Of a DNA stretch of 32,000 bases, positions 15,873-32,000 are shown piece by piece. Under the pieces are notes generated by a model, which did not search any database, was not told where the DNA came from, and saw only the letters and a list, made by a program, of their open reading frames with translations. How positions within the stretch are numbered: the first letter of the stretch is position 1; every line of letters starts with the position of its first letter. The translations under genes and the position numbers were made by a program. Source of the stretch: Candidatus Lokiarchaeum ossiferum (GTDB taxonomy: Archaea > Asgardarchaeota > Lokiarchaeia > Sigyniarchaeales > Promethearchaeaceae). Location of the stretch: positions 420,001 to 452,000 of the forward strand of contig CP104013.1 in the NCBI GenBank assembly GCA_025839675.1, given 5' to 3'.

Positions 15873-16835
15873 TTATACTTTTCGTGTTAGACCGGACCAC
15901 TTTACATTGTGAACTCCAATACTAATGGCAATATCGTAATAATATTCCATTTCATCCTGTGTGAATAATTTATCTTGAGTAAAATCCCAAGGTAAATTCA
16001 TGCGAGCATACTTTGCGGCTGCAAGATTATTAAAGGCTAGGATATCCCAACGTTCAATTTTATTATCCAATTCTTCCACAATGAAAGATGCGATACCTCG
16101 AATATTTTCATCTGATGCGGTATAGCGTGGAATTATTGGTGTTCTAATCCATAGTTGCTTTTCTTGATTATCAATTTCTCGAGCCAACCATCGTATATTA
16201 GCTAAAATTTTCTCATTAGGATGACCTACAAAGGATTTATGCTTTTTTGAATCGATTTCCTTGATATCAAGTAAGAAAATATCCACTAAAGGCAATAATT
16301 TCAGATAATTCTTTTGAGAAGATAACCCGCATGTATCGAGTGCAGTTGAAAAACCATTCGCTTTACATTTTTTTAATAAGGCTAAGAGAAAATCCATTTG
16401 TAGGGTTGGTTCTCCTCCTGAAATTGTTATTCCCCCGCCTGATTTATCATAAAATGCGCGATCCTTAGCAATTTCTTCATACAAATCTTCCACAGACCAA
16501 TATTTTCCGATCATCTTCAACGCTGTTGAGGGACATTCTTCAACACATTCTCCACAAGCAGTGCATTTCTCTCGATTAATTTTAATCCCTGATTCAGATG
16601 AAATGATTGCTTTTTGCTGACAAACCTCTAAGCATGATAGACAGCCAATACACTTATTTTTAAACCATTGGATACTTGGTTTTTTCCATATCGATTCAGG
16701 ATTGTGACACCATGCACAACGAAGGGGACACTCTTTGAAAAAGATAGTTGTTCGTATTCCTGGACCATCTTCTGTGCTGAGTTTCTGAATCTCAAAGACC
16801 CACCCTCCATTTTCTCCCGATTTCTGTTCTGTCAT
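15873..16835 (-). CDS. Glycyl-radical enzyme activating enzyme (radical SAM, ferredoxin-insert type)
   Basis: 'STEDGPGIRTTIFFKECPLRCAWCHNPE' carries the CX3CX2C radical-SAM cluster. Two extra clusters are present: 'CIGCLSCLEVC' and 'CTACGECVEECP'. The 'GGGITISGGEPTLQ' SAM-binding motif is also present. Confidence 0.9.
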   Translation of the reverse strand: MTEQKSGENGGWVFEIQKLSTEDGPGIRTTIFFKECPLRCAWCHNPESIWKKPSIQWFKNKCIGCLSCLEVCQQKAIISSESGIKINREKCTACGECVEECPSTALKMIGKYWSVEDLYEEIAKDRAFYDKSGGGITISGGEPTLQMDFLLALLKKCKANGFSTALDTCGLSSQKNYLKLLPLVDIFLLDIKEIDSKKHKSFVGHPNEKILANIRWLAREIDNQEKQLWIRTPIIPRYTASDENIRGIASFIVEELDNKIERWDILAFNNLAAAKYARMNLPWDFTQDKLFTQDEMEYYYDIAISIGVHNVKWSGLTRKV

Positions 16836-16859
16836 TTTCTATATTACACCGAAATTTAC

Positions 16860-19388
16860 TTACATTTGATGGTTTTCACGAGCTATTAATTCATCCTGTA
16901 ATTCTTTTCCTATGGATGTGAAATAGGCATTATAACCTGTGACCCTAACTAGAAGATTTGCATAATTTTCGGGATGATGTTGAGCATCAATTAACATTTT
17001 TGCATCTAACATGTTGATCTGAAGAGCAGTTCCACCGTTCTCAATATAACCGCGAATATAGGCTTTAAATTTTTCTTTGTGCTCAGAATCACGCAGAAGA
17101 CTCGGATTGAAAGTTATTGTGTGTGAAGCACCATTTGGAAGGAAATTAATGTAATCCCCAGTTTCTGTTTTGCCTCCTAATGCATTACCCACCGAGTTTG
17201 TTACCGCAGTAGGACCTTTAGTATCTGCGCCATTGGTAGGACAAATAGCATTTGAAAGAAATGTCCCAGCTTTCCTCCCATTAGGTGTTGCAGGGGTAAA
17301 AGCAGCATCTTCTCCAGCCCAATAATTCCAAGAAAGCATGCCGGGTCTAAATTTATAGTTAGTTGGAGTAGTATACTGATAGGTTTCTTTAGACCAGAAC
17401 TCCATTGCTTCTCGTGCAATCTCATCCATTTCTGTCTCGTCGTTACCAAATTTCGGTGCCTTATTTGAGAGAATTGCTTGCATGATTTCATATTCCTTTT
17501 TGCCTTCAAAATTATTTATTAGAGCTTCTTTAATTTGAGCAAAAGAATATTTTTTCTCATCAAAAACATATTTTTTAATCGCTAAAAGCGAATCAACCAT
17601 AGTAGCAAAGGCGACACCTTCTATAGTTACAAATCCATATTTAGGAGGACCCGCATGTATATCAATGCCTTTTGAAATACAATCATCCATTAATATTGAT
17701 AAGTAAGGTACAGGAAGATATTTTGCGCGAGTTTCTTCACCTAAATTGTAAAAATCAACTGTATATTTGATAATATATTTAATCTGTTTTTTCCAAGCAT
17801 TGAAAAATTCATCCCATGATTGAAATGTCTCTGGATCTCCTGTTTCTGGACCAAATTGTTTTGATTCTTTATATTGTTTAAAAGTATTATCACCCATTAT
17901 ACGTTTAAAGCCTGGTTGATTTTTACCGTTCCATAATGTTAACTCAATACTTTTTGCGAGATTAGGATTACAATTAACGGTTCCTGATCGATCATTTCCG
18001 CACATTGTATTTTCAAGACATCCAACACATCCATAATCCCATACTTCATCTTTAGGAATACCTTCTTCCATTAATCCCGCCATACTACGTTCATCAAAGT
18101 TCAAAATGAAGGGAGCACCTTGTGCGCGGGTTATCATTTCAATAAGTTTATCGATTAATTTATCTGGTGAACCTCGGTGTAATCTCACATTGGGTTTTGG
18201 TTCTAAGATCGGAGCCCATTCGTCAAAACATTCTAAAATTAAATAAGTTAATTCATTGGTGAGATCCTCTCCTTTAGGTCCTAGTCCCGATAGAGTTATA
18301 AGTTGACCGAACCCAGCAGTAATTCCTTGATTTCCGATCTTAATTTGTGCATCATAAGCGGTGTTACAATGAAATATAAAGGAACTGAAAATATCTTTGG
18401 CCATATCTCGGGATAATGTTTGGTCTTCAAGCACATCCCTTTTATAAAGCGGCCATAAAATTTGATCAATTCGCCCAAAACTAAAACCAGGTCCAGGATA
18501 ACTTCCTTCGGACATGGTTAACATATGTGCAATCCAAATAGATTGAAGACTTTGCCAAAAGGTGGTAGCTGGTCCCCAAGGAACTTGCTTTAAATTTTCA
18601 TGCATCAATTTCAATTCTTCTTTTCTTTCTTCCGTAGATGCTGAAGCAAGTAAGTTTTCACATTCTTCCGCATATTTTACTGCCAAATCTCGAGGTAATT
18701 CCGCAGCAATCATCATCGCTCGTAGTTCAGAACCTTTAGATCCTTTTTTTTCAGAGTCGGAAAGTGCAGAGTAGGTTTTTTTTGCTTTATCATAAAGATA
18801 GGAAAACCCCTTTTCAACAACTGTTTTAAAATCTGGAATTATGTGTCCACCAGTTGCCCCTGCATTCCCAAAGCCTTCTTGGTGATAATGAAGAGCAGCA
18901 GTGCGATTTCTTAAATTTTCCTTTTCATAAATTTCATATTCTTTAGCATTCAGACATTTAGAGAGTTGTGTATTAAATCTTCCTCCCGCGAGTAAATCAT
19001 TTTCAGAAATTATCTCTTGAGGAATATAATCGACCATTACCATTTTTAAAAATGTAGCTCTTCTTTCAGGAAGGGAAAGATCCCAAAATTCTAAGGGTAA
19101 TTCTACCTTCTGTGCCATTTGAAGAAGTGAAAGGCCAAATAACCCTTTTCCCTTTACTCCCATAAATCCATAGACTTCTGGAACAATATGATAATCCCCT
19201 TCATTCCATACTCTATCTCCCCATGATGCCCCTGTTGTATAGGGAGAATATTCGTTATTCCATTTCCGATCATTTCCTTTAAAATAATAATCACGTAACC
19301 ATTTTGCTTTTGGAGAAAGATCATGGGATTGGGCAACCGAATATTGTGGTATATTTACTGAATTTGATTTTTTTTTTGTATCACTCAT
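16860..19388 (-). CDS. Glycyl radical enzyme, PFL2/dehydratase-lyase class, substrate unknown
   Basis: 842 aa. C-terminal glycyl-radical motif 'LLVRVTGYNAYF' (Gly818, codon 16935-16937). Cys loop 'YGCVGCLEN' (Cys454, Cys457, Glu459). Family-typical 'APKFGNDETEMDEIA' and 'NGADTKGPTAV' blocks. Confidence 0.9.
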   Translation of the reverse strand: MSDTKKKSNSVNIPQYSVAQSHDLSPKAKWLRDYYFKGNDRKWNNEYSPYTTGASWGDRVWNEGDYHIVPEVYGFMGVKGKGLFGLSLLQMAQKVELPLEFWDLSLPERRATFLKMVMVDYIPQEIISENDLLAGGRFNTQLSKCLNAKEYEIYEKENLRNRTAALHYHQEGFGNAGATGGHIIPDFKTVVEKGFSYLYDKAKKTYSALSDSEKKGSKGSELRAMMIAAELPRDLAVKYAEECENLLASASTEERKEELKLMHENLKQVPWGPATTFWQSLQSIWIAHMLTMSEGSYPGPGFSFGRIDQILWPLYKRDVLEDQTLSRDMAKDIFSSFIFHCNTAYDAQIKIGNQGITAGFGQLITLSGLGPKGEDLTNELTYLILECFDEWAPILEPKPNVRLHRGSPDKLIDKLIEMITRAQGAPFILNFDERSMAGLMEEGIPKDEVWDYGCVGCLENTMCGNDRSGTVNCNPNLAKSIELTLWNGKNQPGFKRIMGDNTFKQYKESKQFGPETGDPETFQSWDEFFNAWKKQIKYIIKYTVDFYNLGEETRAKYLPVPYLSILMDDCISKGIDIHAGPPKYGFVTIEGVAFATMVDSLLAIKKYVFDEKKYSFAQIKEALINNFEGKKEYEIMQAILSNKAPKFGNDETEMDEIAREAMEFWSKETYQYTTPTNYKFRPGMLSWNYWAGEDAAFTPATPNGRKAGTFLSNAICPTNGADTKGPTAVTNSVGNALGGKTETGDYINFLPNGASHTITFNPSLLRDSEHKEKFKAYIRGYIENGGTALQINMLDAKMLIDAQHHPENYANLLVRVTGYNAYFTSIGKELQDELIARENHQM

Positions 19389-21993: not shown

Positions 21994-23826
21994 TTAATTA
22001 TTCTCCTCCAATAATTCTTCTAAAGTTTTATCAAAACGTGTTAAAAAGATTTTTCTATATTCCTCTGAGGTTTTCAATAAGTGTTCATGGGAACCTTGTG
22101 CAACAATTTTACCAAGCCGAAAGACAATAATTTTATCCGCCCACCGAATTTGACTCAATCGGTGAGTAATTAAAAGCGTTGTTCTTCCTTTGAGAATGCG
22201 GGAAATTGCCCTTTGAATATTTTCTTCCGTTGCAGAATCAATTGCTGAAGTAGAATCATCTAAAACCAAAATTTTAGGATCCGAAATAAAAGCGCGAGCG
22301 ATTGCAATTCGTTGACGTTCTCCCCCACTCAATTGAACACCACGTTCTCCGACATTAGTATCGTATTGTTTTGGTAACTTTAAGATAAATTCATGAGCTT
22401 GAGCATCCTTTGCGGCTTTAATTACTTCTTCTTTACTTGTTACTCTCCCAAAAGCGATGTTTTCAAAAATACTTTTGGAAAACAGAAATATATCTTGCTC
22501 AATGTATGCAATTTGATTGCGAAGAGAATGCAATTCATAGTCTTTAATATCAATACCATCTACTAATATTTGACCTTTAGGTACGTCATATAATCTTGAA
22601 ATTAATTTTGTGCAAGTTGTTTTTCCCGATCCTGTTGTCCCAACAATAGCAATTGTTTCACCAGCCTTAGCTGAAAATGAAACACCTTTCAGAACCAGAT
22701 TCTCGGTCCTAGGATAAGAAAAAAACACTTCTTTAAATTCAATATCTCCACTAATATTCTTTTTAATGGAATTATCCATTTGAACAATTTCTGAAGATTT
22801 ATTCATTGTATCCAGTAGTCTATCAGCCCCCGCTATCGCACGTTTTACTAAAGCAAAAGCCCATATTGATATTCGTGTTGGAAAATAAAGTGTCAAAATC
22901 AACCCCATATAACCAATGATCTCATAGACCTCCATTTCACCTCTTTGTTGGAGAATAATTGCGTAAACAAGACTTAAAGTTATTGTTATAGCAACCATAA
23001 GAAGAGGAAAATATCGAGCTTGAATTTGTCCTTCCTTAACTCCAATTTCAAGGTATTTTTTTGCTTGCTTTTGATATAACCGAATTGAACGTTTTTCTTG
23101 AGCCATGCCTTTTATAACTTCTATTCCAGATAATGATTCATTAAGGATGGCGTTAAGATTGCCATATTCCATTTGCTTAGCTTGAACTACTGGCCCTAAA
23201 CTATTAACATACTGTTTTAAAGCAACAACAAAGAGTACACTATAGATTGAAGGGATTATAGCCAATCTTGGGGAGTAAATTAAGGCAACCATGACAATCG
23301 GTACGATTGTATTAATAACCGATTCAAAAATTAGTGATATACCGGGACTAATTAAAAAATTTAATTGACGGACGTCATTTGTTGCTCTAGCCATTATATC
23401 CCCCAGTCTTTGTTCATCATGGAATGATTGACTTTTTCCTAATAAATTTAAATATAGTTCATTTCGAGAATCCCGTTCCATCCGTTGTGCTAATATTTCA
23501 CGGAGAACATTTCCCAATAAATCTAATAAAGGTGAACCTATTCCTAATAGCAAGATTAAAACGGAGTAAAATATCAAATCTTGAGTGTTTCCGGCAGTAA
23601 AAGACCCAATTGCTTCTCCTAAATATACTTTCACCCGGGCATAAACAATTGCCGAAAAAATTGTTAAAATGACCCAAGAAAAGATAAAAATTTTATTATT
23701 TCTATATAATAGATGTTTTAATATCCAAACATAGGTTTTTTTTTGACGTGCTTCATAAAAATCATCATTAGTTGGCTTAAATTCTAGATGATTCAAATTT
23801 CTGCTAGTTTCTACTTGTTTTTGCAC
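21994..23826 (-). CDS. ABC exporter permease/ATPase fusion (half-transporter), degenerate-Walker-B subunit
   Basis: Walker A GTTGSGKTT and canonical signature LSGGERQ. Walker B is ILVLDDSTSAID, with Asp replacing the catalytic Glu. H-loop LITHRL. 1-bp gap to the partner gene. Confidence 0.9.
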   Translation of the reverse strand: MQKQVETSRNLNHLEFKPTNDDFYEARQKKTYVWILKHLLYRNNKIFIFSWVILTIFSAIVYARVKVYLGEAIGSFTAGNTQDLIFYSVLILLLGIGSPLLDLLGNVLREILAQRMERDSRNELYLNLLGKSQSFHDEQRLGDIMARATNDVRQLNFLISPGISLIFESVINTIVPIVMVALIYSPRLAIIPSIYSVLFVVALKQYVNSLGPVVQAKQMEYGNLNAILNESLSGIEVIKGMAQEKRSIRLYQKQAKKYLEIGVKEGQIQARYFPLLMVAITITLSLVYAIILQQRGEMEVYEIIGYMGLILTLYFPTRISIWAFALVKRAIAGADRLLDTMNKSSEIVQMDNSIKKNISGDIEFKEVFFSYPRTENLVLKGVSFSAKAGETIAIVGTTGSGKTTCTKLISRLYDVPKGQILVDGIDIKDYELHSLRNQIAYIEQDIFLFSKSIFENIAFGRVTSKEEVIKAAKDAQAHEFILKLPKQYDTNVGERGVQLSGGERQRIAIARAFISDPKILVLDDSTSAIDSATEENIQRAISRILKGRTTLLITHRLSQIRWADKIIVFRLGKIVAQGSHEHLLKTSEEYRKIFLTRFDKTLEELLEENN

Positions 23827-24061
23827 TTTTCCACCACAGTTTTTAAATGATTAGTTAATGGTCAATTAGGATTGAATTAAAAAGCTAACTCCTATTGATA
23901 ATAATAGCTTACTTAATGAAAATTGATGAATAAAAATTTCGATTTGAGTTTATTAAGATTGCCCCATTTCTTGAATACTGTTAGAAAATTTTCAACAATT
24001 TGTTCATATTCTCATTAAAACTAAAACATTTATGAAAAAGGAGGTTTTTCAAATTATTCAA

Positions 24062-24071
24062 ATATTTATAA
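24062..24071 (+). promoter_or_regulatory. TATA-like box upstream of cheY
   Basis: ATATTTATAA is centred about 30 bp upstream of the cheY ATG (24097). This fits an archaeal TATA box with a very short or absent leader. Position-based inference only. Confidence 0.3.
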
Positions 24072-24096
24072 GATTTGTGAAGAAAGTTGATAGAAA

Positions 24097-24462
24097 ATGG
24101 CTAAAATTTTAATTGTTGATGACGCGAAATTCATGCGAAACATATTGGTGAAAATTTTGACAGCAAATGGTCATCAAATAGTCGGAGAAGCAGATAGTGC
24201 GAATGAGGGAATAGAAAAATTTAAAGAACTATCTCCAGATTTGGTTACTATGGATATTTGCATGCCCGATAAAAGTGGTATGGAAGCGATTAAGGAAATT
24301 ATCGAAATTGATCCCAATGCAAAAATTGTGGTATGTTCTTCACTTGGACAAGAATTGATGGTTATGGAAGCAATTCAAATGGGGGCAAAAGACTTTATTG
24401 TAAAACCATTTAAAAAAGAAAAACTCGCAGAAATGATCAACAAAATCGTTCAAGAACCATGA
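24097..24462 (+). CDS. cheY: Chemotaxis response regulator CheY (stand-alone receiver)
   Basis: 121 aa. Acidic pocket 'ILIVDDAKFMR', phospho-acceptor context 'LVTMDICMPDKSG', 'VVCSS' and 'VKPF' (conserved Lys). The length and the FMR/MPxxxG pattern are CheY-like. Confidence 0.9.
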   Translation: MAKILIVDDAKFMRNILVKILTANGHQIVGEADSANEGIEKFKELSPDLVTMDICMPDKSGMEAIKEIIEIDPNAKIVVCSSLGQELMVMEAIQMGAKDFIVKPFKKEKLAEMINKIVQEP

Positions 24463-24487
24463 ATTAATTATAGAAGAATGATTAAAA

Positions 24488-25144
24488 ATGGAACCTGAGA
24501 AAACACCTAGCAACCTATCCAAAAAAGATGTGTATATAAAAAATTTAGATATTTTCAGAGAATTAGGAAACATTTGTGCTGGGGGGGCTGGAAATATATT
24601 ATCAAAATTGATAAAAAAGAAAATTTATTTTGATATACCACCTGCTAAATATTTATCAATTTCCCAAATAATTAAAGGGAGATTGATTGAAAATCAAAAA
24701 CAAATGTGTTTACATGGTACAATAAAAGGTTTCTTTCAGGGTAAGATTTTTTTAATGACTCCTATTGATGAAACAGAAATTCTTCTTGAAAATTTATATA
24801 AAGTAAAAAAAAAGGCAGAAATTAAAAAAAATCAGAATTTTAATTCAAATGACAACCAAATACTTCATAATTTTTTTAAAAAGCTTATCAATGCATATAC
24901 TGATGCTTTAGCGAGTTTTCTACAAGTTTCATTAATGTTTGATGAGGAACAATTTATAACAAAACAAGGTTCTGATTTCAAATCTTGTGTTGCTTCAACC
25001 ACAGATGAAGAACTAAACAAGGCGATAACTATAGAGACAACAATCAAAGTTGAAAATGAAGAAATAATCCACTGCAGCTTCTTGTTTATTCTAGGATCAA
25101 GTGAAGTTGATACGATTTTAAATCGAATTGAAGAAATATGGTAA
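24488..25144 (+). CDS. CheC-family (CheC/CheX/FliY-like) CheY-P phosphatase homolog with a single intact active-site motif
   Basis: Residues 21-51 'DIFRELGNICAGGAGNILSKLIKKKIYFDIP' fit D/S-X3-E-X2-N-X22-P exactly by hand count. The second pseudo-repeat (FFKKLINAYTDALASFL...) lacks the Glu and the Pro. Confidence 0.7.
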   Translation: MEPEKTPSNLSKKDVYIKNLDIFRELGNICAGGAGNILSKLIKKKIYFDIPPAKYLSISQIIKGRLIENQKQMCLHGTIKGFFQGKIFLMTPIDETEILLENLYKVKKKAEIKKNQNFNSNDNQILHNFFKKLINAYTDALASFLQVSLMFDEEQFITKQGSDFKSCVASTTDEELNKAITIETTIKVENEEIIHCSFLFILGSSEVDTILNRIEEIW

Positions 25145-25171
25145 GATACATAGATTAAAAAAAATTTTTAG

Positions 25172-25789
25172 ATGAAAATAATGAAACGAAAACCTTTAGA
25201 ATTACCTAAACAAATTGAAAAGATCCCATACTATTGTTCTGTATGTGCAATGACACATGTTGTCCAAATTCGGAAAGAAAATTTACAAGGAAAACACTTT
25301 CCCATTTCCTATGTATATATTCACGGAAATCCTCAACTAGCAACTGTTCTTTATATAGACAAAGATTTACAAGTCCGTGGATACGAAAATGTGAAAGGAA
25401 TTGGTATAAACTCAGATCAATTAGATGAAATTCTGCATGAATCCCGTTTTAATACCTTAAAAAGAATTCCACTATCATCCATCTTAGCCTTTCGCCTCTT
25501 TCAAAATGAAGATATAAAAAAAATGTATGTAAAAAAGGGGTTTGAAAATTCGATTAATTTTGATGCCATCTCAAACTTAATAAGCGATACTCAAAAAATA
25601 ACACATAATTTCGAAATGTGTAGCGATTTTTATATGAAATTCAATGATTATTGGATTGGAGCATTGCAATTATTGGATTTTCGATTTATTATGATTGTAT
25701 CTTCCGATATTGATGTGGATCATTTAAAGTTTCAAATTATGAATTTGTTTGAAATATTCTCTGCAAACTATAAAACTAAGGATGTATGA
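25172..25789 (+). CDS. Uncharacterised protein, paralog A (CX2CX3H-X21-H N-terminal module plus a C-terminal alpha/beta module)
   Basis: 205 aa. Aligns gap-free with the next gene. Conserved blocks are FP[IV]SY..[IV]HGNPQ, LYIDK...VRG, IGIN.DQL.EI, IKK.Y.K.GFE, WIG and ID[VI]DH.KFQ.M..FE. Confidence 0.6.
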   Translation: MKIMKRKPLELPKQIEKIPYYCSVCAMTHVVQIRKENLQGKHFPISYVYIHGNPQLATVLYIDKDLQVRGYENVKGIGINSDQLDEILHESRFNTLKRIPLSSILAFRLFQNEDIKKMYVKKGFENSINFDAISNLISDTQKITHNFEMCSDFYMKFNDYWIGALQLLDFRFIMIVSSDIDVDHLKFQIMNLFEIFSANYKTKDV

Positions 25790-25792
25790 GCC

Positions 25793-26377
25793 ATGGATGA
25801 TAAATTTAGTGTCTTAACAGAACAGATAATAGAAACAATGTTTTTTTGCAATAAATGTCAAGAAAATCATTGGGTGCAATTACCAAAATCTCTTTTTAAT
25901 ACGAAATCTTTTCCAGTTTCCTATGCTTTTGTACACGGAAATCCTCAGATCATCGCAATTTTATATATCGATAAAAATCATACAGTAAGGGGAGTTGAAT
26001 ATCCTAAGCAAATTGGAATTAATCGAGATCAATTATCTGAAATTATTGATAAAAGTAAAAGTCAAACTTTTTCTTCAATCCCAGAAGATTTAATCTATGC
26101 ATTCGAAGTGATTGCTGAAGATAAAATTAAAAAGATCTACTCAAAGCAGGGCTTTGAACAAATCGTTAACTTTTCAGCAATTAGAGAAATGATCACCCTT
26201 ACCCCAAATTTTGTTAAAACAAAAGAATCTTTCAGAGAATTCTTTATTAAATATAGCGATTGTTGGATTGGAGGAATGGAATTGTATGATCACTACTTTA
26301 CAATGGTAGTTGATGCATCAATTGATATTGATCATTTTAAATTTCAAATGATGGCAATGTTTGAATCTTTAATTTGA
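25793..26377 (+). CDS. Uncharacterised protein, paralog B of the preceding gene
   Basis: 194 aa with a 3-bp intergenic gap. 78 of 175 positions are identical to paralog A in my ungapped hand alignment starting at the first Cys. Confidence 0.6.
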   Translation: MDDKFSVLTEQIIETMFFCNKCQENHWVQLPKSLFNTKSFPVSYAFVHGNPQIIAILYIDKNHTVRGVEYPKQIGINRDQLSEIIDKSKSQTFSSIPEDLIYAFEVIAEDKIKKIYSKQGFEQIVNFSAIREMITLTPNFVKTKESFREFFIKYSDCWIGGMELYDHYFTMVVDASIDIDHFKFQMMAMFESLI

Positions 26378-26401: not shown

Positions 26402-27544
26402 ATGGGAACATATCATTATATTAATCTAACACATTTCACAGATCCTTTTGACTTTTTACCACTACTTTCTCAATTATCGGAATCAATTAAAAATCCTTTT
26501 GTAAAAATTAATAGAATAATTTTTTCCAATTTTGCCACAGCGCGACAATTTTTAGAACAAATATCAGATACCCCGTGGAAAACCCAAACTCAAGATATTA
26601 TTCCAAAATGCGACCAATGTAACACAGATTTGGATAAAAATATAGACGAAAATCAAGTCGAATCACAGATTTCAATAAAAGCACCCAAAATAATAACTTC
26701 TAATGAGAGTGCTTATGAAATTGAACGAGTTTTACGCATTTTCGGAGAATATCAATCTACAATTAAGACCGAAATATTATGTTCAGATACTTCTGAGGCG
26801 CTTGACACTATGAAATATTTTTTGCAAGATAAATTCCCCGATCTTTGTTTAACAACTCCCATTCGTTGCTCACTCGTTCATAATGAATTCGAAATCGATA
26901 CAACAAACAATAAAAAGACAAGAAAAAAAAATCGAAAGCCACCGGCACCCTTTCAAAGATTTCTAAAAATATCCGCCCCACACCTTTATCCAAATTCTAT
27001 TGGAAATGACTATTATGGGAATCCTGTGTTTTCTTCCTATCTCACTTTGTTTAATAATATGCTTTCACCTTCTCTTTCTGAAAATGCATCCTATACTGAA
27101 ATAGAACAGAAAATTGAGCAATTTGACCAAATTCCCCTTCCTCCTTCCCCTTTAAAATATTATGATCTGCAAACGAAGGAAGGAGAAATTGAATTGCGGT
27201 TTCAGACTTATTTACCCCTCCCATTGTTTATGGATTGGATGAATGTGCTAAAAAGAATAATAGATCAATTTGATCAATCCCTCGAAATGTTCCGATGTTC
27301 TCTGGTTTATGATCATTGGGAAACAGAACTAGAACAGAAATCGGCGAAATTGGATCGTTTCTTTTTCTCTTGGAACGATATAGAATTTGCTTATACCGAA
27401 AAAAATTATCTATTTTTATCTCAATTTTCTGCAAAACCAGGATCTGGCGCACTTTATCTCAAATTGACACCTTTCATTGAAGATTCCGATTTTCGAATTC
27501 AACTTCTCGAATCTGCTACTAAACAAAAACTTCAGCTCATGTAA
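26402..27544 (+). CDS. Hypothetical protein (380 aa), no recognisable family
   Basis: Long ORF co-oriented with a 24-bp gap in the cheY operon. Central basic/Pro-rich linker 'NNKKTRKKNRKPPAPFQRF' and 'IPLPPSPLKYY'. No TM segments or catalytic motifs recognised. Confidence 0.55.
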   Translation: MGTYHYINLTHFTDPFDFLPLLSQLSESIKNPFVKINRIIFSNFATARQFLEQISDTPWKTQTQDIIPKCDQCNTDLDKNIDENQVESQISIKAPKIITSNESAYEIERVLRIFGEYQSTIKTEILCSDTSEALDTMKYFLQDKFPDLCLTTPIRCSLVHNEFEIDTTNNKKTRKKNRKPPAPFQRFLKISAPHLYPNSIGNDYYGNPVFSSYLTLFNNMLSPSLSENASYTEIEQKIEQFDQIPLPPSPLKYYDLQTKEGEIELRFQTYLPLPLFMDWMNVLKRIIDQFDQSLEMFRCSLVYDHWETELEQKSAKLDRFFFSWNDIEFAYTEKNYLFLSQFSAKPGSGALYLKLTPFIEDSDFRIQLLESATKQKLQLM

Positions 27545-27582
27545 AAAATTTAAACGGTGACCCCTTTCCAATATCATATAAA

Positions 27583-29016
27583 ATGAGTTTAGAAGAAGAA
27601 AAACATAATCGGTTTAAAAAAGGACAAATGCTAATAAAAAAGGCTCAAAAGTTTATTTTAAAAAAGAGATATTCTAAAGCTCGCGAGTTATTGTATGAAG
27701 CGCAAGAAATTTTTGAATTTACTGAATCTTCACTTACTGAAGGTAAAGTTTTTGCTTCAATTGCTGAAACTTTTGAGATACAACACATGTGGGACAATGC
27801 ATTGAAATTTTATCAAAATGCACTAGAAAAACGAAAGATTGCAGGAAGTGTTATTTTATTATCGGAAACGCACCGTAAACTGGCAATAGTTCAAATGGAG
27901 TTAAAAAATTTTGAAATGGCCCATGCATCCGCTCAAAAATCGATTGATTTGGTAGAAAATCTTGAACATCCATTATCGAAAGCAGAAGCCTTTCATACCC
28001 AAGGGATAATTTATTTAAAGGAATTAGATTATGAAAGTGCTCTTTTTTATGAAAATTTTGCGTATGAAAATGTCCAGATACAACTATCATGGAATTTAGC
28101 CTTGGATATTTTTGAGAATTTAGCCTTTATCCACTATAATATTGGAGATTATTCCCAATCTAATATTTTTTGCAAGAAAGCCCTTGAAATGGAGCAAAAA
28201 CAGAGAAATTATGTTGTTATCAGCACTATTTTGGAATTGATGGCATTAAATTATCGACTCTTAGGTAAAATTGATCAAGCTTTAACATACATTAAAGATG
28301 CGCTTTCAATACAAGCCCATTTAAATCCAGATATAGCCTTAAAACAAAAAAACAAAATGAAATTAAATTACGCTACAATTCTTTTTGACTGTCACAAATT
28401 TTCAGAAGCAGAAATAATTGCTGAAGAACTTATTGAACAAGCGGAACTATCCCAAGATTCAGAACAATTAGTGCAAGGGTTACTCGTTATGGTCAAAATA
28501 ATTATGGCTTTACCAACTCATGAAGAATTTAGTAATACTAAACATTATTTAGAAGAAGCGAAGAAATTAGCTCATACTCTAAAAAATCAGGAATATTTAA
28601 CTGAAATTTATATATATTATGGTAGATATTATGATTTGTCTTCAGAAAGGCTTAAAGCGGAAGAAATGTATCAATTGGCGATCGATACCGCAATGATATC
28701 ACAATCAAAATTGAAAATTGGAGAGGCATTTGAACAATTTGGTTTATATTTTCACAAACATAAAAAAATGGAATTGGCTCATACCAACTTCAAGCAAGCG
28801 GTTCAATATTTGTCAAAGACACACAATAATATGGATTTAGCAGAAGCTCATTATAATTTAGCTTGTACTTGTTCAGTTTTACATTTAGGAGAAGATATTT
28901 TGACACATCTTTCCCAAGCAATCAATTTGGATCCAAAATACAAACAGATTGCCAAAATGGATGAAGATTTTACAGGAATTTCAACACAAGAAGTATTTCG
29001 CAATCTTGTTGAATAA
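27583..29016 (+). CDS. Tetratricopeptide-repeat (TPR) protein
   Basis: 477 aa, all-helical, with repeated 34-residue-type units carrying the A/Y/L pattern. Examples: 'AEAFHTQGIIYLKELDYESALFYENFA', 'LMALNYRLLGKIDQALTYIKDAL', 'AEAHYNLACTCSVLHLGEDILTHLSQAINLDP'. Confidence 0.8.
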   Translation: MSLEEEKHNRFKKGQMLIKKAQKFILKKRYSKARELLYEAQEIFEFTESSLTEGKVFASIAETFEIQHMWDNALKFYQNALEKRKIAGSVILLSETHRKLAIVQMELKNFEMAHASAQKSIDLVENLEHPLSKAEAFHTQGIIYLKELDYESALFYENFAYENVQIQLSWNLALDIFENLAFIHYNIGDYSQSNIFCKKALEMEQKQRNYVVISTILELMALNYRLLGKIDQALTYIKDALSIQAHLNPDIALKQKNKMKLNYATILFDCHKFSEAEIIAEELIEQAELSQDSEQLVQGLLVMVKIIMALPTHEEFSNTKHYLEEAKKLAHTLKNQEYLTEIYIYYGRYYDLSSERLKAEEMYQLAIDTAMISQSKLKIGEAFEQFGLYFHKHKKMELAHTNFKQAVQYLSKTHNNMDLAEAHYNLACTCSVLHLGEDILTHLSQAINLDPKYKQIAKMDEDFTGISTQEVFRNLVE

Positions 29017-29026
29017 ACTTTACTCA

Positions 29027-29036
29027 TTTTTTATTT
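29027..29036 (+). terminator. Oligo-T tract after the TPR gene, likely end of the cheY-to-TPR transcription unit
   Basis: TTTTTTATTT starts 11 nt after the TAA stop at 29014-29016. Confidence 0.35.
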
Positions 29037-29135
29037 ATAGATCCTACGTTGTAATTCATGCTATTAGTGAATTAATAAATTGGAAGACCGAAGCTAAAGC
29101 AATAAATACCGTTACTTTCAGAAGCTGTTCGAGAA

Positions 29136-29151
29136 AATTGGACGTCCAATT
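29136..29151. repeat. Perfect 16-bp palindrome AATTGGACGTCCAATT
   Basis: Read directly: AATTGGAC / GTCCAATT is self-complementary with no spacer. It is flanked by an unusually G+C-rich patch (tcgcgctgcgc) in otherwise A/T-rich noncoding DNA. Confidence 0.6.
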
Positions 29152-29195
29152 CGCGCTGCGCTTATTTTATTAACACATTATTAAAAACTATCTGA

Positions 29196-29546
29196 TTTTT
29201 GTCGGTTTTTCATATTTGTCACCCAAGAAAAACTTCCCATTTCTTCCAAAATCGAATCAAATCCAAGTTCCGACATTAATTAAAAATTGTGATATAATGA
29301 AGTTTTATGATATGTGGAAAATAGATAATTATTTTGTCGAATTAATTCTTGCGACTTAAACCGCTAGCTTTTAGTATTGATCTATTTTTGTCGAATATTG
29401 TCGAAGCTGGAGATCTTCACTTCCAAATTGCGGTAATTGTTCCTCGGTTTTTCACTTGGTCCCTTAAATATCCAACTATACTTTGATTATAATAGAATCA
29501 AAATCATGATATCCCAATCTTATACTCATCTGATTCCGATGTCGAA
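29196..29546 (+). repeat. Cluster of same-strand TTGTCGAA-type motifs in noncoding DNA
   Basis: Exact TGTCGAA at 29335-29341, 29389-29395, 29399-29405 and 29540-29546. The middle two form a 10-bp-period tandem, TTGTCGAATA|TTGTCGAAGC, at 29388-29407. Variant TTTTTGTCGG at 29196-29205. Three copies are preceded by a T-run. Confidence 0.6.
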
Positions 29547-29591
29547 GAGATTGATTAAAAAAATGTGAATAATTATCTTTGGAGATAGTAT

Positions 29592-29608
29592 GGGGATGTG
29601 TGATCCCC
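29592..29608 (+). other. G+C-rich hairpin GGGGAT-gtgtg-ATCCCC followed by TTTATT, about 37 nt upstream of the mini-ORF ATG
   Basis: Stem GGGGAT (29592-29597) pairs with ATCCCC (29603-29608) around a 5-nt loop, with a T-rich tail. It could be a leader structure or a terminator-like element. Confidence 0.35.
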
Positions 29609-29644
29609 TTTATTCCCATTGTTTAATGTGTGTGTGAAGCAAAA

Positions 29645-29944
29645 ATGTCAATGTATAGAAAGTATCTTTTAAAGAAAAACTTCTGGGCTCAACCCAAGAA
29701 GGACGGGAGCGATCCCAGCTGCTATGTGAAACATGATATACGAACAGGGGGAATTTATGCCTACGTTCAACATCGCGGAGTTAAAATCGTAGCCGATAAT
29801 AAATCTAAAGAATTTAGTAACTTTAATGAACTCGATCAATATTTAGATCAGCTTTCCATGTCTACTCGCGAAGATACCACTCAATTCATGCAAGTGTTAA
29901 ACCGTCGCAACTCGTCCAAAATGCTCCGAAAAATAACCATTTAA
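29645..29944 (+). CDS. Small hypothetical protein (about 99 aa) with atypically high G+C; coding status uncertain
   Basis: The ORF track starts at GTG 29630. ATG 29645 (MSMYRKYLLKK...) is more plausible. My hand count gives 57/120 G+C in 29681-29800 versus 12/60 in 30061-30120. No family recognised. Confidence 0.4.
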   Translation: MSMYRKYLLKKNFWAQPKKDGSDPSCYVKHDIRTGGIYAYVQHRGVKIVADNKSKEFSNFNELDQYLDQLSMSTREDTTQFMQVLNRRNSSKMLRKITI

Positions 29945-30045
29945 TCAATTGTAAACAAAACTCCGCTAAAAGAACTTAAGTAATCCTTACTTTTTTATTC
30001 CTAAGTTTTCAAATTTAATTAAACTCAAGAAGGTCACTGTTCTCT

Positions 30046-30888
30046 ATGAAACATATTTGGATTATCAATAAATTTTCATCTACAAATTTACTTTATCGGA
30101 ATTATTCTGATTTTAGTATCGATCCTGATTTGGTTAGTGGTTTATTGACTGCCTTAAACTCCTTTTCAGAAGTTGAACTTAAAGCTCATGGAATTTCCTC
30201 GATACATATGGGTGGTTTAAAGTGGGTATATTCAGATCAAAAAGAAATGCATCTAATGCTGATTGCTGCAGATAAAATTGAAGCTCAAACTGAAGTCCTT
30301 CGGGCTCGTTTAGAGGTAATCTTCAAAATGTTCATTGAGAAATATGGAATTATCCCTGAACAAATGGAAAAAACCTTAATTGATTCGGTCCGCTTTGATG
30401 ATTTTGCCGAAGAATTGGATTTATTAAAAGCCCAATGGATACAAGCAGAAGAAATAATCACAGGGGGAGCCGCAAAAATATTTGATCTTTTAGGCGTTTT
30501 TCAGCAGATCTACTCGGCTTTCAATAATATTATTCGACTTAACTTTTTCCAAGCAGATTACGATAATACGGTTATCGAAATAAAAATGATATTGGAAAAT
30601 ATGAAGGGAACCCCAGAATTCAAAAAATATCCCGAATTGTCAAAAATTAAATTTGATAAATATGGATGGGATGTAATTAACTTAAACCCAACGAATTTGG
30701 ATGAAAAAGTTCTGGCACGAATCTTAATTATGTTAACCCTCCATTTAAACAATATTCTTACAACGAAATTAAGTAGATCGTCAAAATATAATGCGTATTC
30801 CAAAGAAATCTTTCCATTATTGCTTGAAAAATATGATCTACTCGTTTCATTGGATATTTTGCATACTTTAATGCGAGTTTTTTTGTAG
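30046..30888 (+). CDS. Protein with an N-terminal longin/roadblock-like alpha-beta domain and a helical C-terminal region
   Basis: The first about 105 aa show a beta-beta-alpha-beta-beta-beta-alpha pattern: IWIINKFSSTNLLYRNY / DPDLVSGLLTALNSFSE / ISSIHMGGLKWVYSDQ / HLMLIAADK / EVLRARLEVIFKMFIEKYG. This is typical of archaeal longin/roadblock-like proteins. The fold call is from sequence pattern only. Confidence 0.5.
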   Translation: MKHIWIINKFSSTNLLYRNYSDFSIDPDLVSGLLTALNSFSEVELKAHGISSIHMGGLKWVYSDQKEMHLMLIAADKIEAQTEVLRARLEVIFKMFIEKYGIIPEQMEKTLIDSVRFDDFAEELDLLKAQWIQAEEIITGGAAKIFDLLGVFQQIYSAFNNIIRLNFFQADYDNTVIEIKMILENMKGTPEFKKYPELSKIKFDKYGWDVINLNPTNLDEKVLARILIMLTLHLNNILTTKLSRSSKYNAYSKEIFPLLLEKYDLLVSLDILHTLMRVFL

Positions 30889-31040
30889 AACGAAGATTCA
30901 AAATAAAAAATTCTGAAATTTCATGATTTGGTTTCCCAAACTAGTTTTTTTTTTTGAAAATTTCATGCAAATTTTATGGATTTTTCATGAATTTTTTTTT
31001 AACACTAAGGGATAAATTCCTTTTTGTGCAAAAATCACAT

Positions 31041-31772
31041 ATGAGTAGCATGCTAGATGGTTCCATAAAACTAGTAATATTCGAATTGGCATCGGAAGAA
31101 TTTGGAGTAGATATCCACAAAATTAATTCTACGGTCAGAATGCAAGAAATTATCAAAGTACCCAATGCAAATGCGTTTATTGAAGGTATTTTAGATTTTA
31201 GAGGTACACCTTTGCTCGTCATAGATCTTCGTAAGAAATTTGGACTGTCAACTGAGGCTAAAAACATAGAAAATATGCGAATTTTGATCATTGAGTTTCA
31301 ACCGCATAAAATCGGTTTTATAGTAAATGCAGTTACTGAGGTTAAACAAATCCCCTTTAATACCATAGAACCCGTTCCATCAAATATTTTAACTGATGAA
31401 CTAGAAGAAAAGTATTTGCTAGGGATAAGCAATTTAGAAAAAGGCGAGCGATTAATTTTAATGCTAGATCTAGCGAATATGTTTTCACCGCCAGAAATTG
31501 ATGAACTCAGTCGTCTACTCAATGATCAAGAGTTTTTGCAAAATTGTCTAAGAACTGGATTAGAAGAAATGAAAATCTATGATGAACAAACCGCCTCCAC
31601 ATTTGATCAAGAACATCGTAAAAAAATTGAATCTAAAATAGAATCAAATGATTCGAACAAAATAATTGAAGATAATATCTCAACTGAACGCAAAATTGTA
31701 CAAAAATTGGCAGTGAAAGAAATAGAAGACGAATTACAATTATCTATTAACTATAGCGACGAAGAAGAATAA
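31041..31772 (+). CDS. cheW: Chemotaxis coupling protein CheW with a long acidic C-terminal tail
   Basis: CheW-domain pattern 'LVIFELASEEFGVDIHKINSTVRMQEIIKVPNANAFIEGILDFRGTPLLVIDLRKKFGL ... ILIIEF..HKIGFIVNAVTEV'. The ATG at 31041 (MSSMLDG...) is preferred over the TTG at 30954. About 100 residues of E/D/K/S-rich tail follow the domain. Confidence 0.85.
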   Translation: MSSMLDGSIKLVIFELASEEFGVDIHKINSTVRMQEIIKVPNANAFIEGILDFRGTPLLVIDLRKKFGLSTEAKNIENMRILIIEFQPHKIGFIVNAVTEVKQIPFNTIEPVPSNILTDELEEKYLLGISNLEKGERLILMLDLANMFSPPEIDELSRLLNDQEFLQNCLRTGLEEMKIYDEQTASTFDQEHRKKIESKIESNDSNKIIEDNISTERKIVQKLAVKEIEDELQLSINYSDEEE

Positions 31773-31790: not shown

Positions 31791-32000
31791 ATGAGTAATA
31801 TAACTGATAATGGTGAAAATTCGGAAGACATAGTCGATGTTCTTCAATATCAAGAAGAATTAGAATTAGATGATGAAGAAATTGAAGAGATAACACATAA
31901 TCAAGAACAAAATAAAACGGTTTTATACATAACAATAACATTACAACCCGAAACCGAATTGAAATATACACGCGCATATCTATGTTTAAAAAAAGTTCGA
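31791..32000 (+). CDS. Partial ORF (runs off the window): acidic N-terminus followed by a CheA-P2-like beta-alpha segment
   Basis: ATG at 31791, 18 nt after the cheW stop, open to nt 32000 (70 codons, no stop). 'LYITITLQPETELKYTRAYLCLKKV' resembles the P2-region pattern I recall from Thermotoga and Bacillus CheA ('FYIKVILKEGTQLKSARIYLVFHKL'). No HPt (P1) domain precedes it. Confidence 0.35.
   Translation, partial: MSNITDNGENSEDIVDVLQYQEELELDDEEIEEITHNQEQNKTVLYITITLQPETELKYTRAYLCLKKVR

Follow-up and report, generated by a model that had tools for sequence, protein, structure and literature searches.

The 32,000-nucleotide stretch analysed here, which we call the window, comes from Candidatus Lokiarchaeum ossiferum (contig CP104013.1, positions 420,001 to 452,000 of the forward strand; G+C about 31%). 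It contains a cluster of chemotaxis (che) genes that runs from cheY to the start of cheA, with every gene on the + strand (Table 1). Directly after cheY and a cheC-like gene lie two adjacent genes, A and B, which encode paralogous proteins. We name their family ZnRb, and describe below the architecture of the two proteins, the genes that accompany their relatives and the part that they might play in chemosensory signalling. Loci and proteins retrieved from other sequences are referred to by L and P numbers, respectively.

Two paralogs and their family

The stop codon of A and the start codon of B are separated by three base pairs (TGA-gcc-ATG). Aligned by BLASTP, the two proteins share 81 identities over 184 positions (44%), with 115 positives, no gaps and an E value of 4e-58, a resemblance that, judged from the sequences, lies far above chance. 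The first-pass annotation of this DNA, made from its letters and open reading frames (ORFs), had counted 78 identities over 175 ungapped positions, which is an equivalent observation, and the ORFs and their 3-bp gap exist as it described them. Both proteins contain the motif C-x2-C-x3-H, followed 21 residues later by the histidine of an HGNPQ sequence (C22, C25, H29 and H51 in A; C19, C22, H26 and H48 in B), and we confirmed the codons of all eight putative ligands in the DNA. This motif had been pointed out from the start, as had the blocks LYIDK..VRG, IGIN.DQL, WIG and ID[VI]DH.KFQ.M..FE, which we find to be conserved in orthologs as well. An alternative start of A, the second ATG at 25181, gives a 202-residue product, which is the form held in databases.

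Between orthologs, the ratio of nonsynonymous to synonymous substitution (dN/dS) ranges over 0.11-0.27 in A, 0.02-0.08 in B and 0.05-0.18 in cheY; both A and B are under purifying selection. In a rough neighbour-joining tree, A-like and B-like sequences fall into separate clades. In the other tandem pairs, those of loci L015 and L017, the member closer to A comes first and the member closer to B second, and the A-like to B-like order is thereby retained in all three tandem pairs. From the distinct clades and the retained order, we conclude that the tandem is old.

The window and the corresponding locus of a second Lokiarchaeum strain (L004, CP163304.1) are almost identical across 16.2 kb, except for one diverged patch at approximately 22000-25600, which takes in the promoter region, the genes cheY and cheC and the part of A that encodes its N-terminal half, and reaches up to about 35% mismatches per 200 bp. 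The DNA of gene B is identical in the two strains, and B together with everything downstream of it shows only three base differences (27200-30199). Judged from the sequence comparison, the patch looks like a recombination import that ended inside gene A, in the half that encodes the roadblock-type domain described below.

Scans of Pfam (E<=1), NCBIfam and PADLOC returned no match for A or B, and comparison with PDB by sequence gave only noise at E=1.4. The first-pass annotation could not place the family and, indeed, no sequence model in these four collections covers either protein. A word-indexed homology search returned only three to eight relatives. The family becomes visible only when a profile is run exhaustively against cluster representatives (1.84 billion), which yielded 142 proteins at E<=1e-3. 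About 25 of these proteins are full-length (190-215 amino acids (aa)), and more than 100 cover only the N-terminal ~80 positions. A pattern search of representative genomes gave no locus for the Lokiarchaeum-type patterns and one for the patterns of another subgroup, in addition to one metagenome locus. We stress that the phyletic picture, like the genomic contexts described below, is a sample (nine loci). All ZnRb members that carry a source name belong to Lokiarchaeia or Promethearchaeota, and among the sampled members ZnRb would be a family specific to these groups, found in Asgard archaea only.

Table 1. Coordinates of the che cluster genes and of the features of A and B, numbered from the first nucleotide of the window
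Feature	Position	Strand	Evidence or remarks
cheY, single-domain receiver, 121 aa	24097..24462	+	Pfam Response_reg E=2.3e-29; D8/D9, D53 and K103 present
cheC-like homolog of phosphorylated CheY (CheY-P) phosphatase, 218 aa	24488..25144	+	NCBIfam CheC_Thtogales E=4.8e-16, under the curated cut-off; Pfam CheC E=5.8e-4
Paralog A, 205 aa, putative zinc-site N-module and predicted roadblock domain	25172..25789	+	
A, five-strand N-terminal module, residues ~12-80	25205..25411	+	predicted strands 15-22, 27-34, 45-50, 57-62, 68-73
A, putative ligands	C22 25235-25237; C25 25244-25246; H29 25256-25258; H51 25322-25324	+	
A, predicted roadblock/LC7-fold domain, residues 81-197, alpha-beta-beta-alpha-beta-beta-beta-alpha	25412..25762	+	AlphaFold2 model and Foldseek
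Paralog B, 194 aa, architecture as A; predicted roadblock domain at ~residues 78-194	25793..26377	+	
B, putative ligands	C19 25847-25849; C22 25856-25858; H26 25868-25870; H48 25934-25936	+	
380-aa protein of unknown family	26402..27544	+	syntenic in L001, L004, L007
TPR protein, 477 aa	27583..29016	+	Pfam TPR_12 E=4.4e-22; syntenic in L001, L004, L007
Small ORF, 104 aa; uncertain system member	29630..29944	+	called in L003, L004, L007; 97-104 aa in related loci
280-aa protein, longin-like N-terminal domain (residues ~2-124, nucleotides 30049-30417), helical C-terminal part	30046..30888	+	
cheW	30954..31772	+	Pfam CheW E=1e-29; gene callers start at ~30987, giving 261 aa
cheA, start; continues beyond the window end	31791..32000	+	542 aa in L004 (L004:15999-17627)

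The putative metal site and the C-terminal fold

Among 21 diverse full-length members, which are 20-43% identical to A, the only invariant columns are C22, C25, H29 and H51. A larger set of 128 N-terminal modules (N-modules) keeps the two cysteines in 127 and 125 cases and the histidine of the HG dipeptide in all 128. The remaining ligand is a histidine placed either four residues past the second cysteine (66 modules) or five residues past the HG histidine (HGxPxH). Modules with CxxCxxxH only, HGxPxH only, both and neither number 65, 58, 1 and 4, respectively (Fisher p=2e-30, a value that ignores the relatedness of the sequences). Such near-exclusive alternative positions fit a Cys2His2 site with four ligands, one of which has been relocated. 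With four ligands conserved across the family, the putative Cys2His2 site, whatever its fold, is the most conserved feature of ZnRb. A potential metal site of the C2H2 type had been proposed from A and B alone, and the conservation in relatives agrees with it; we infer that the site is structural and that its metal is most likely zinc.

The N-module that carries this site is modelled by AlphaFold2 as an all-beta unit of ~65 residues with five strands, and no Pfam model matches it above threshold. We can set aside a classical C2H2 zinc finger, in which C-x2-4-C-x12-H-x3-5-H is held in a beta-beta-alpha unit: the spacing here is C-x2-C-x3-H-x21-H (or C-x2-C...H-G-x-P-x-H), the module is all-beta and there is no zf-C2H2 match in Pfam. 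With zinc ribbons and knuckles and with the beta-tent fold of the cereblon CULT domain, the N-module shares a CxxC knuckle between two beta strands. Zinc ribbons possess two CxxC (or CxxH) knuckles, contributed by two beta hairpins, whereas ZnRb has one CxxC and two histidines in a five-strand module. The matches to ribbon families are sub-threshold (ribosomal eL42 at E about 0.1; Pfam Zn_ribbon_Brz at E=0.0017, seen for 4 of the 27 modules compared). The best profile matches in PDB are eL42 and the thalidomide-binding CULT domain of cereblon (E=0.11 over 53 aligned residues that include C..C and HG); neither is significant, and we treat the CULT match as a lead only.

The same N-module occurs with coiled coils, ubiquitin-like domains (11 of the 93 proteins scanned), V4R (8), TPR (3) and longin (3) domains, helix-turn-helix (HTH)/TrmB regulators and MetOD1, and stands alone as a gene in L013, in an unrelated neighbourhood that offers no functional hint. 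Given these many partners and the non-che contexts, we regard the N-module as a generic building block that is not Che-specific; the linkage to che genes belongs to the full-length architecture of Zn module plus roadblock domain. As an undescribed domain in more than 100 protein clusters, the N-module merits a family model of its own. We also considered whether the fusions of N-module and TPR in P0086 and P0089 could serve as a 'Rosetta stone' for the TPR protein of the window, and rejected them, the similarity being of a generic TPR kind (E=0.002-0.06).

For the C-terminal half, AlphaFold2 gave a poor model of A from a 10-sequence alignment (predicted local distance difference test score, pLDDT, of 60) and a better one from a 21-sequence alignment (pLDDT 82.7, predicted template modelling score 0.67). 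After the N-module, the latter contains helices at residues 81-93, 130-142 and 182-197 and strands at 104-111, 114-120, 152-156, 160-167 and 170-177, which is the alpha-beta-beta-alpha-beta-beta-beta(-alpha) arrangement of the roadblock/LC7 fold. Foldseek found 41 matches to this model in PDB at E<=1e-3, and all 50 matches listed are of roadblock or Ragulator type; against viral structures, nothing was found at E<=1e-3. The best match is 1veu_B, from the p14/MP1 pair of Ragulator (E=2.7e-5, template modelling score 0.64 normalised to the target), and others are the Prometheoarchaeum and Thorarchaeote Roadblocks 7yh1, 9jue, 9jq8 and 7f8m and the Streptomyces roadblock protein 3kye. As all of these are of roadblock type, the C-terminal half of A is predicted to be a roadblock/LC7 domain at the level of fold. 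At the level of sequence profiles, neither A nor B matches Pfam Robl_LC7 (PF03259) or any NCBIfam model, even at a Pfam E value of 1. The roadblock-like character that the first-pass annotation had read from the sequence thus stands, although the order of elements that it gave, beta-helix-beta-beta-beta-helix, does not.

Taken together, a genuine family that combines a metal site with a roadblock fold is something of which we are highly confident. Its fold is known; what appears to be new, from comparison of the sequences, is the way the domains are combined, the zinc module itself and the recurrent placement next to cheY. The roadblock superfamily is hugely expanded in Asgard archaea, where it comprises 130 asCOGs (bioRxiv 10.1101/2020.10.19.343400), and its domains, LC7, MglB and the Ragulator subunits included, work as dimeric platforms on which partner proteins assemble (PMC10329633). 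With MglB/MglC of Myxococcus, LAMTOR2/3 (that is, p14/MP1) and the Asgard Roadblocks, the likeness lies in the fold of residues 81-197 of A (Foldseek E=2.7e-5 to 1e-3, probability 1.0). These relatives differ from ZnRb in that ZnRb lacks similarity to Pfam Robl_LC7 and has the extra N-terminal Cys2His2 module. A further comparison is offered by the response regulators of Thaumarchaeota, whose output domain NitrOD3 is related to roadblock, so that an archaeal receiver is likewise combined with a module of roadblock type (PMC5847659). NitrOD3 was described in Thaumarchaeota as fused to the receiver (REC) domain, with no mention of a Zn module (PMC5847659), whereas receiver and roadblock parts are separate adjacent genes in the ZnRb loci.

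Genomic contexts of ZnRb members

We distinguish nine independent contexts, in seven of which a ZnRb member lies in or beside cheY or other che genes, in differing gene orders; the members outside Lokiarchaeum-type loci are 26-45% identical to A and B of the window. The Lokiarchaeum type (the window, L001 and L003-L008) has the order cheY-(cheC)-A-B-380-aa gene-TPR gene-small ORF-280-aa gene-cheW-cheA, with cheC missing from L007, which is otherwise syntenic with the window. L009 combines a 174-aa longin-like gene and a member (31% identity to A) with a series MCP-cheW-cheY-cheB-cheA-cheD, where MCP denotes a methyl-accepting chemotaxis protein. The locus from Promethearchaeota archaeon CR_4 (L012) contains cheC, a P2-like gene, a member, cheW, cheR, a gene for a P1-P2 protein and three MCP genes. 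L015 is a minimal cassette of cheY (65% identity to the window cheY), an A-like gene and a B-like gene; the 4 kb upstream of it and the 10 kb downstream contain no further che gene. In a Lokiarchaeia metagenome-assembled genome (L016), cheA is followed further on by cheR-cheB-cheD-cheC-member-REC-Ras GTPase, tightly spaced on one strand. L017 has MCP-cheW-cheY-cheA-cheW/cheC fusion and then a tandem pair of members. The seventh context (L018 and L014) comprises cheB-cheA-cheD and, further on, cheR, a 133-aa longin-like gene and a member, with a hybrid kinase and a Ras/Roc GTPase convergent to the member. The last two contexts are a fusion of longin and roadblock domains beside a member (L011) and a longin-Zn-roadblock fusion (L019); no che gene was found on either contig, which are short (6.9 and 5.8 kb, respectively).

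The most constant neighbour of ZnRb is cheY, and the window cheY is 65-67% identical to the cheY genes that adjoin members in L009, L015 and L017. Taking a component of the Che pathway to be defined by linkage that is kept across rearranged loci, we find such linkage in seven of the nine contexts, and ZnRb is therefore probably a component of this pathway. Our literature search found no paper linking roadblock proteins to Asgard chemotaxis.

The contig of L017 stems from a sequencing run that also yielded a contig identical to the window, and it holds (L017:4630-11181) a second che cluster, with a cheA that has an Hpt domain and a second ZnRb pair. Two or more Che modules, each equipped with a ZnRb pair, are therefore probable for the source organism. 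As seen from the full gene in L004, cheA of the window cluster consists of P2-P3-P4-P5 and lacks an Hpt/P1 domain, its first 44 residues being an acidic linker. The phospho-accepting histidine must therefore come from elsewhere, either from a second CheA like that of L017 or from a stand-alone P1-P2 protein like that of L012. The latter (L012:4195-5007, 270 aa) has a CheA P1-like phospho-acceptor histidine motif (FHTLKGN) followed by a P2-like region, which matches the CheA of L016 at E=5e-9. A separate 198-aa gene (L012:1349-1945), P2-like by eye, lies directly upstream of the ZnRb member; judged from these genes, CheA appears to be split in Promethearchaeota archaeon CR_4.

A longin-like domain recurs beside the family, adjoining members in L009, L011 and L018. 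P0031 begins with a region that shares 33% identity (E=2e-19) with the 174-aa protein of L009 and runs on into a Zn module and a roadblock domain; it is thus a fusion of what are neighbours in L009. In P0028 and P0033, the same longin-like domain is joined directly to the family roadblock domain. A profile of this domain matches the 133-aa gene of L018 (E=8e-20) and residues 1-124 of the 280-aa protein of the window (hhalign 93%, E=3.1e-7; local hmmsearch E=4.6e-10). The first-pass annotation had listed the N-terminal domain of the latter protein as a third roadblock/longin-like module of the locus, and the longin-like part of that proposal is borne out by these matches. Direct BLASTP of the 280-aa protein against the longin-like protein of L009 gave nothing, and the link is made by profile methods only. 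Pfam matches of the longin-like domains are all sub-threshold (Fuz_longin_1 at E=0.0035 for the 280-aa protein, Sybindin at E=0.0064, Longin at E=7.6e-4). Through the gene fusions found elsewhere, the longin-like module of the 280-aa protein is tied to the ZnRb pair. Longin platforms are abundant in Asgard archaea and include TRAPP sybindin/Bet5, Mon1-Ccz1/Fuzzy and NPRL2-like proteins; the partner domain and the N-terminus of the 280-aa protein both give weak longin-family matches. As a difference from these platforms, no partner of the guanine nucleotide exchange factor (GEF) type and no GTPase is evident in the window.

One further gene of L016 deserves mention. Between cheW/cheC and cheR lies a 181-aa gene (L016:5990-6535) with a gelsolin-repeat match that is below threshold (E=0.0024). 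Together with the member-REC-Ras GTPase series at the end of the operon (L016:10655-11659), this may hint at a cytoskeletal or GTPase output.

A candidate platform at the CheY step

From these observations, we read a ZnRb protein as an all-beta Cys2His2 N-module of ~65 residues, likely to bind zinc, joined to a C-terminal roadblock/LC7 domain. Roadblock domains being obligate homo- or heterodimers that pair through the alpha2 helices and the edge beta strand, and the A-like/B-like tandem being conserved, an A/B heterodimer is the simplest reading for tandem loci; in this respect the tandem pair suggests the same kind of heterodimer as p14/MP1, a paralog pair that forms a platform. In single-copy loci, ZnRb would form a homodimer that teams up with the longin-like partner. 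Considered together, the tandem pairs, the single copies with a longin partner and the fusions point to a hetero-oligomeric roadblock/longin platform, in which the N-module would contribute a rigid surface for interactions, stabilised by zinc. The dimer could then serve as an accessory platform of the Lokiarchaeial chemosensory pathway, binding CheY or CheY-P and passing the signal on to the motility apparatus or to a small-GTPase or cytoskeletal module. At the window locus, the longin-like 280-aa protein would take part, and possibly the TPR and 380-aa proteins as well. The minimal cheY-A-B cassette of L015 suggests that the platform works at the level of CheY. We give about even chances to a dimeric roadblock platform that acts on the Che pathway of Lokiarchaeia at the step of CheY, and slightly poorer ones to its being, more specifically, an output adaptor that binds CheY or CheY-P directly. 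The idea that an A/B heterodimer is a CheY-P effector had been put forward in the first-pass annotation; it is better grounded now, through the seven che contexts, and is still something that we infer.

The position of such an adaptor seems to be vacant. L. ossiferum has 15 MCPs, the genes cheA/B/C/D/R/W/Y and visible chemoreceptor arrays, and cheF is not among its listed genes (PMC9834061); it has also been reported to encode archaellum machinery (bioRxiv 10.64898/2026.04.22.720090). We found no member of the CheF Pfam family in the che loci examined. With che genes, arrays and a reported archaellum machinery, and with no cheF listed, the slot for a CheY-P adaptor is open. CheF is the archaeal CheY-P adaptor to the archaellum switch ArlCDE, and the likeness that we propose is that of a dimeric CheY-P receiver encoded with che genes. 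The analogy would be in function only, since CheF has two PH-like domains and a long helical C-terminal tail for dimerisation and CheY binding (PMC9126983) and ZnRb a zinc module and a roadblock domain.

Several direct identifications were tried and rejected. ZnRb is not CheF (PF04283), given the lack of a Pfam match, the roadblock fold and the lack of any CheF chain among the 50 PDB matches listed. A and B are not phosphatases of the CheC, CheX or FliY families either, as the active-site motif is absent from both and neither Pfam nor NCBIfam gave a match to these families. A CheZ-like D...Q catalytic pair in the ID.DH.K.Q block was discarded because those residues vary across the family. Finally, we set aside a resemblance of the B N-terminus (LTEQIIETMF) to the N-terminal CheY-binding peptide of FliM: the segment is the predicted first beta strand of the N-module and is not conserved in distant members.

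A first rival explanation likens ZnRb to MglB. It holds that the dimer is mainly a GTPase-activating protein, GEF or scaffold for an Asgard GTPase of the Ras/Arf/Rag type, with Che feeding in as Frz feeds MglA/MglB/MglC in Myxococcus. This overlaps with our proposal and does not exclude it, and we consider it unlikely. The fold matches are indeed GTPase platforms, namely p14/MP1 of Ragulator and Asgard Roadblocks studied alongside small GTPases (PMC10933270); roadblock and longin domains are classic GTPase platforms, and MglB/MglC have a chemosensory link via Frz (PMC10329633) that recalls the che linkage of ZnRb. In L016, moreover, the series ZnRb-REC-Ras GTPase (Pfam Ras E=2e-30) is a tight co-directional operon at the end of the che operon, and in L018 a Ras/Roc GTPase lies two genes from the member. 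These two GTPases are only 23% identical to each other, however, and with so many small GTPases in Asgard genomes, their proximity could plausibly be due to chance. No GTPase gene is found within ~10 kb in the window and L004 or in L009, L012, L015 and L017, so that most loci lack a partner GTPase; ZnRb is linked to cheY and not to mglA-like genes, and it has no sequence match to Pfam Robl_LC7 or MglB. The MglB-like reading also underlies a more specific scenario, in which the ZnRb dimer and its longin-like partner are an Asgard-specific output device for a chemotaxis pathway of bacterial type: CheY-P would bind a platform that controls a Ras-like GTPase, and the GTPase would act on cell polarity or on the actin-based protrusions of Lokiarchaeum, rather than, or as well as, on an archaellum. 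We regard this scenario as quite unlikely.

Other explanations move ZnRb away from the output altogether. It is improbable, in our view, that ZnRb serves signal processing, as an array scaffold or a regulator of CheY-P turnover, be it a CheC partner (as CheD is), a factor associated with CheA/CheW or a new CheY-P phosphatase. The gene does directly follow that of CheC or of the CheW-CheC fusion in three loci (the window, L016 and L017), is separated from it by one gene in L012 and by two in L018, precedes the MCP gene, and then cheW, in L009 and directly precedes cheW in L012, and the lack of P1 in the window cheA suggests unconventional wiring. Against this, cheY-A-B is kept without cheC in L007 and L015, the CheC/CheX/FliY motif D/S-x3-E-x2-N-x22-P is found in neither A nor B, and the variation of the ID.DH.K.Q block argues against a catalytic site. 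Cys/His sites can also sense metals or oxidation, and N-modules are fused to ligand-binding V4R domains and HTH regulators; a sensor with a redox-active or exchangeable metal, giving the Che pathway a cytoplasmic metal or redox input, is nevertheless very unlikely. Structural zinc sites typically show what is seen here, a histidine that has moved while four ligands are retained and a CxxC knuckle placed at a beta-hairpin. An N-module found alongside coiled coils, TPRs and ubiquitin-like domains also has the look of a general-purpose part for structure or interaction. Equally remote is a nucleic-acid-binding or housekeeping zinc-ribbon protein whose proximity to che genes is coincidental and due to how Lokiarchaeal genomes are organised. 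The weak zinc-ribbon matches in Pfam and PDB would suit it, as would the absence of che genes from L011 and L019. Seven of the nine contexts, however, keep cheY or che neighbours despite differing orders and 26-45% identity, the minimal cheY-A-B cassette among them, and a coincidence would not survive such rearrangement; an excess of che neighbours is already suggested by the present sample.

Several points weigh against our own proposal of a platform at the CheY step. The genes found nearby would look alike for an output adaptor, an array scaffold, a regulator of CheC or CheA and a CheY-P phosphatase, and two of the nine contexts (L011 and L019, both short contigs) show no che gene. More than 100 proteins combine the N-module with unrelated partners, and it is also found away from che genes, as in L013. 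The 380-aa, 104-aa and TPR genes are conserved only in Lokiarchaeum-type clusters, and no homolog of the 380-aa or 104-aa protein was found in other che loci; the 380-aa protein has no match in Pfam, NCBIfam, PADLOC or PDB, and the 104-aa ORF no family match in Pfam or NCBIfam. The model of A was built on only 21 sequences, and the statistic for the ligand switch takes the N-modules as though they were unrelated to one another.

Small, soluble and encoded beside cheY even in a three-gene cassette, ZnRb offers a concrete, cloneable candidate for the step after CheY in Asgard archaea. In eukaryotes, roadblock and related longin folds serve as GTPase platforms. If the link to CheY holds, a horizontally shared prokaryotic sensory pathway would have been wired into the expanded roadblock/longin/GTPase repertoire of the lineage from which eukaryotes arose.

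Two further families, neither of them present in the window, accompany che genes in these loci. In three Lokiarchaeal che operons (L009:12623-15077, L016:1816-4689 and L018:2830-6552), the gene after cheA or cheD encodes a large protein with a DUF11/CLIPPER-like region, from 668 to over 1000 aa long, and its three representatives are homologous (E=4e-28, 2e-10). It is followed in L016 and L018 by a protein of 256-282 aa (E=7e-11 between the two). Both are further che-associated families that lack annotation.

Upstream of the che cluster, on the opposite strand, the window contains two ABC exporter genes and those of a PFL-like glycyl-radical enzyme of 842 aa and its radical-SAM activase (15873-19388, - strand). 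In all Lokiarchaeum-type loci (L001, L004, L007), they keep their synteny with the che cluster, and in L004 an actin gene lies ~10 kb downstream.

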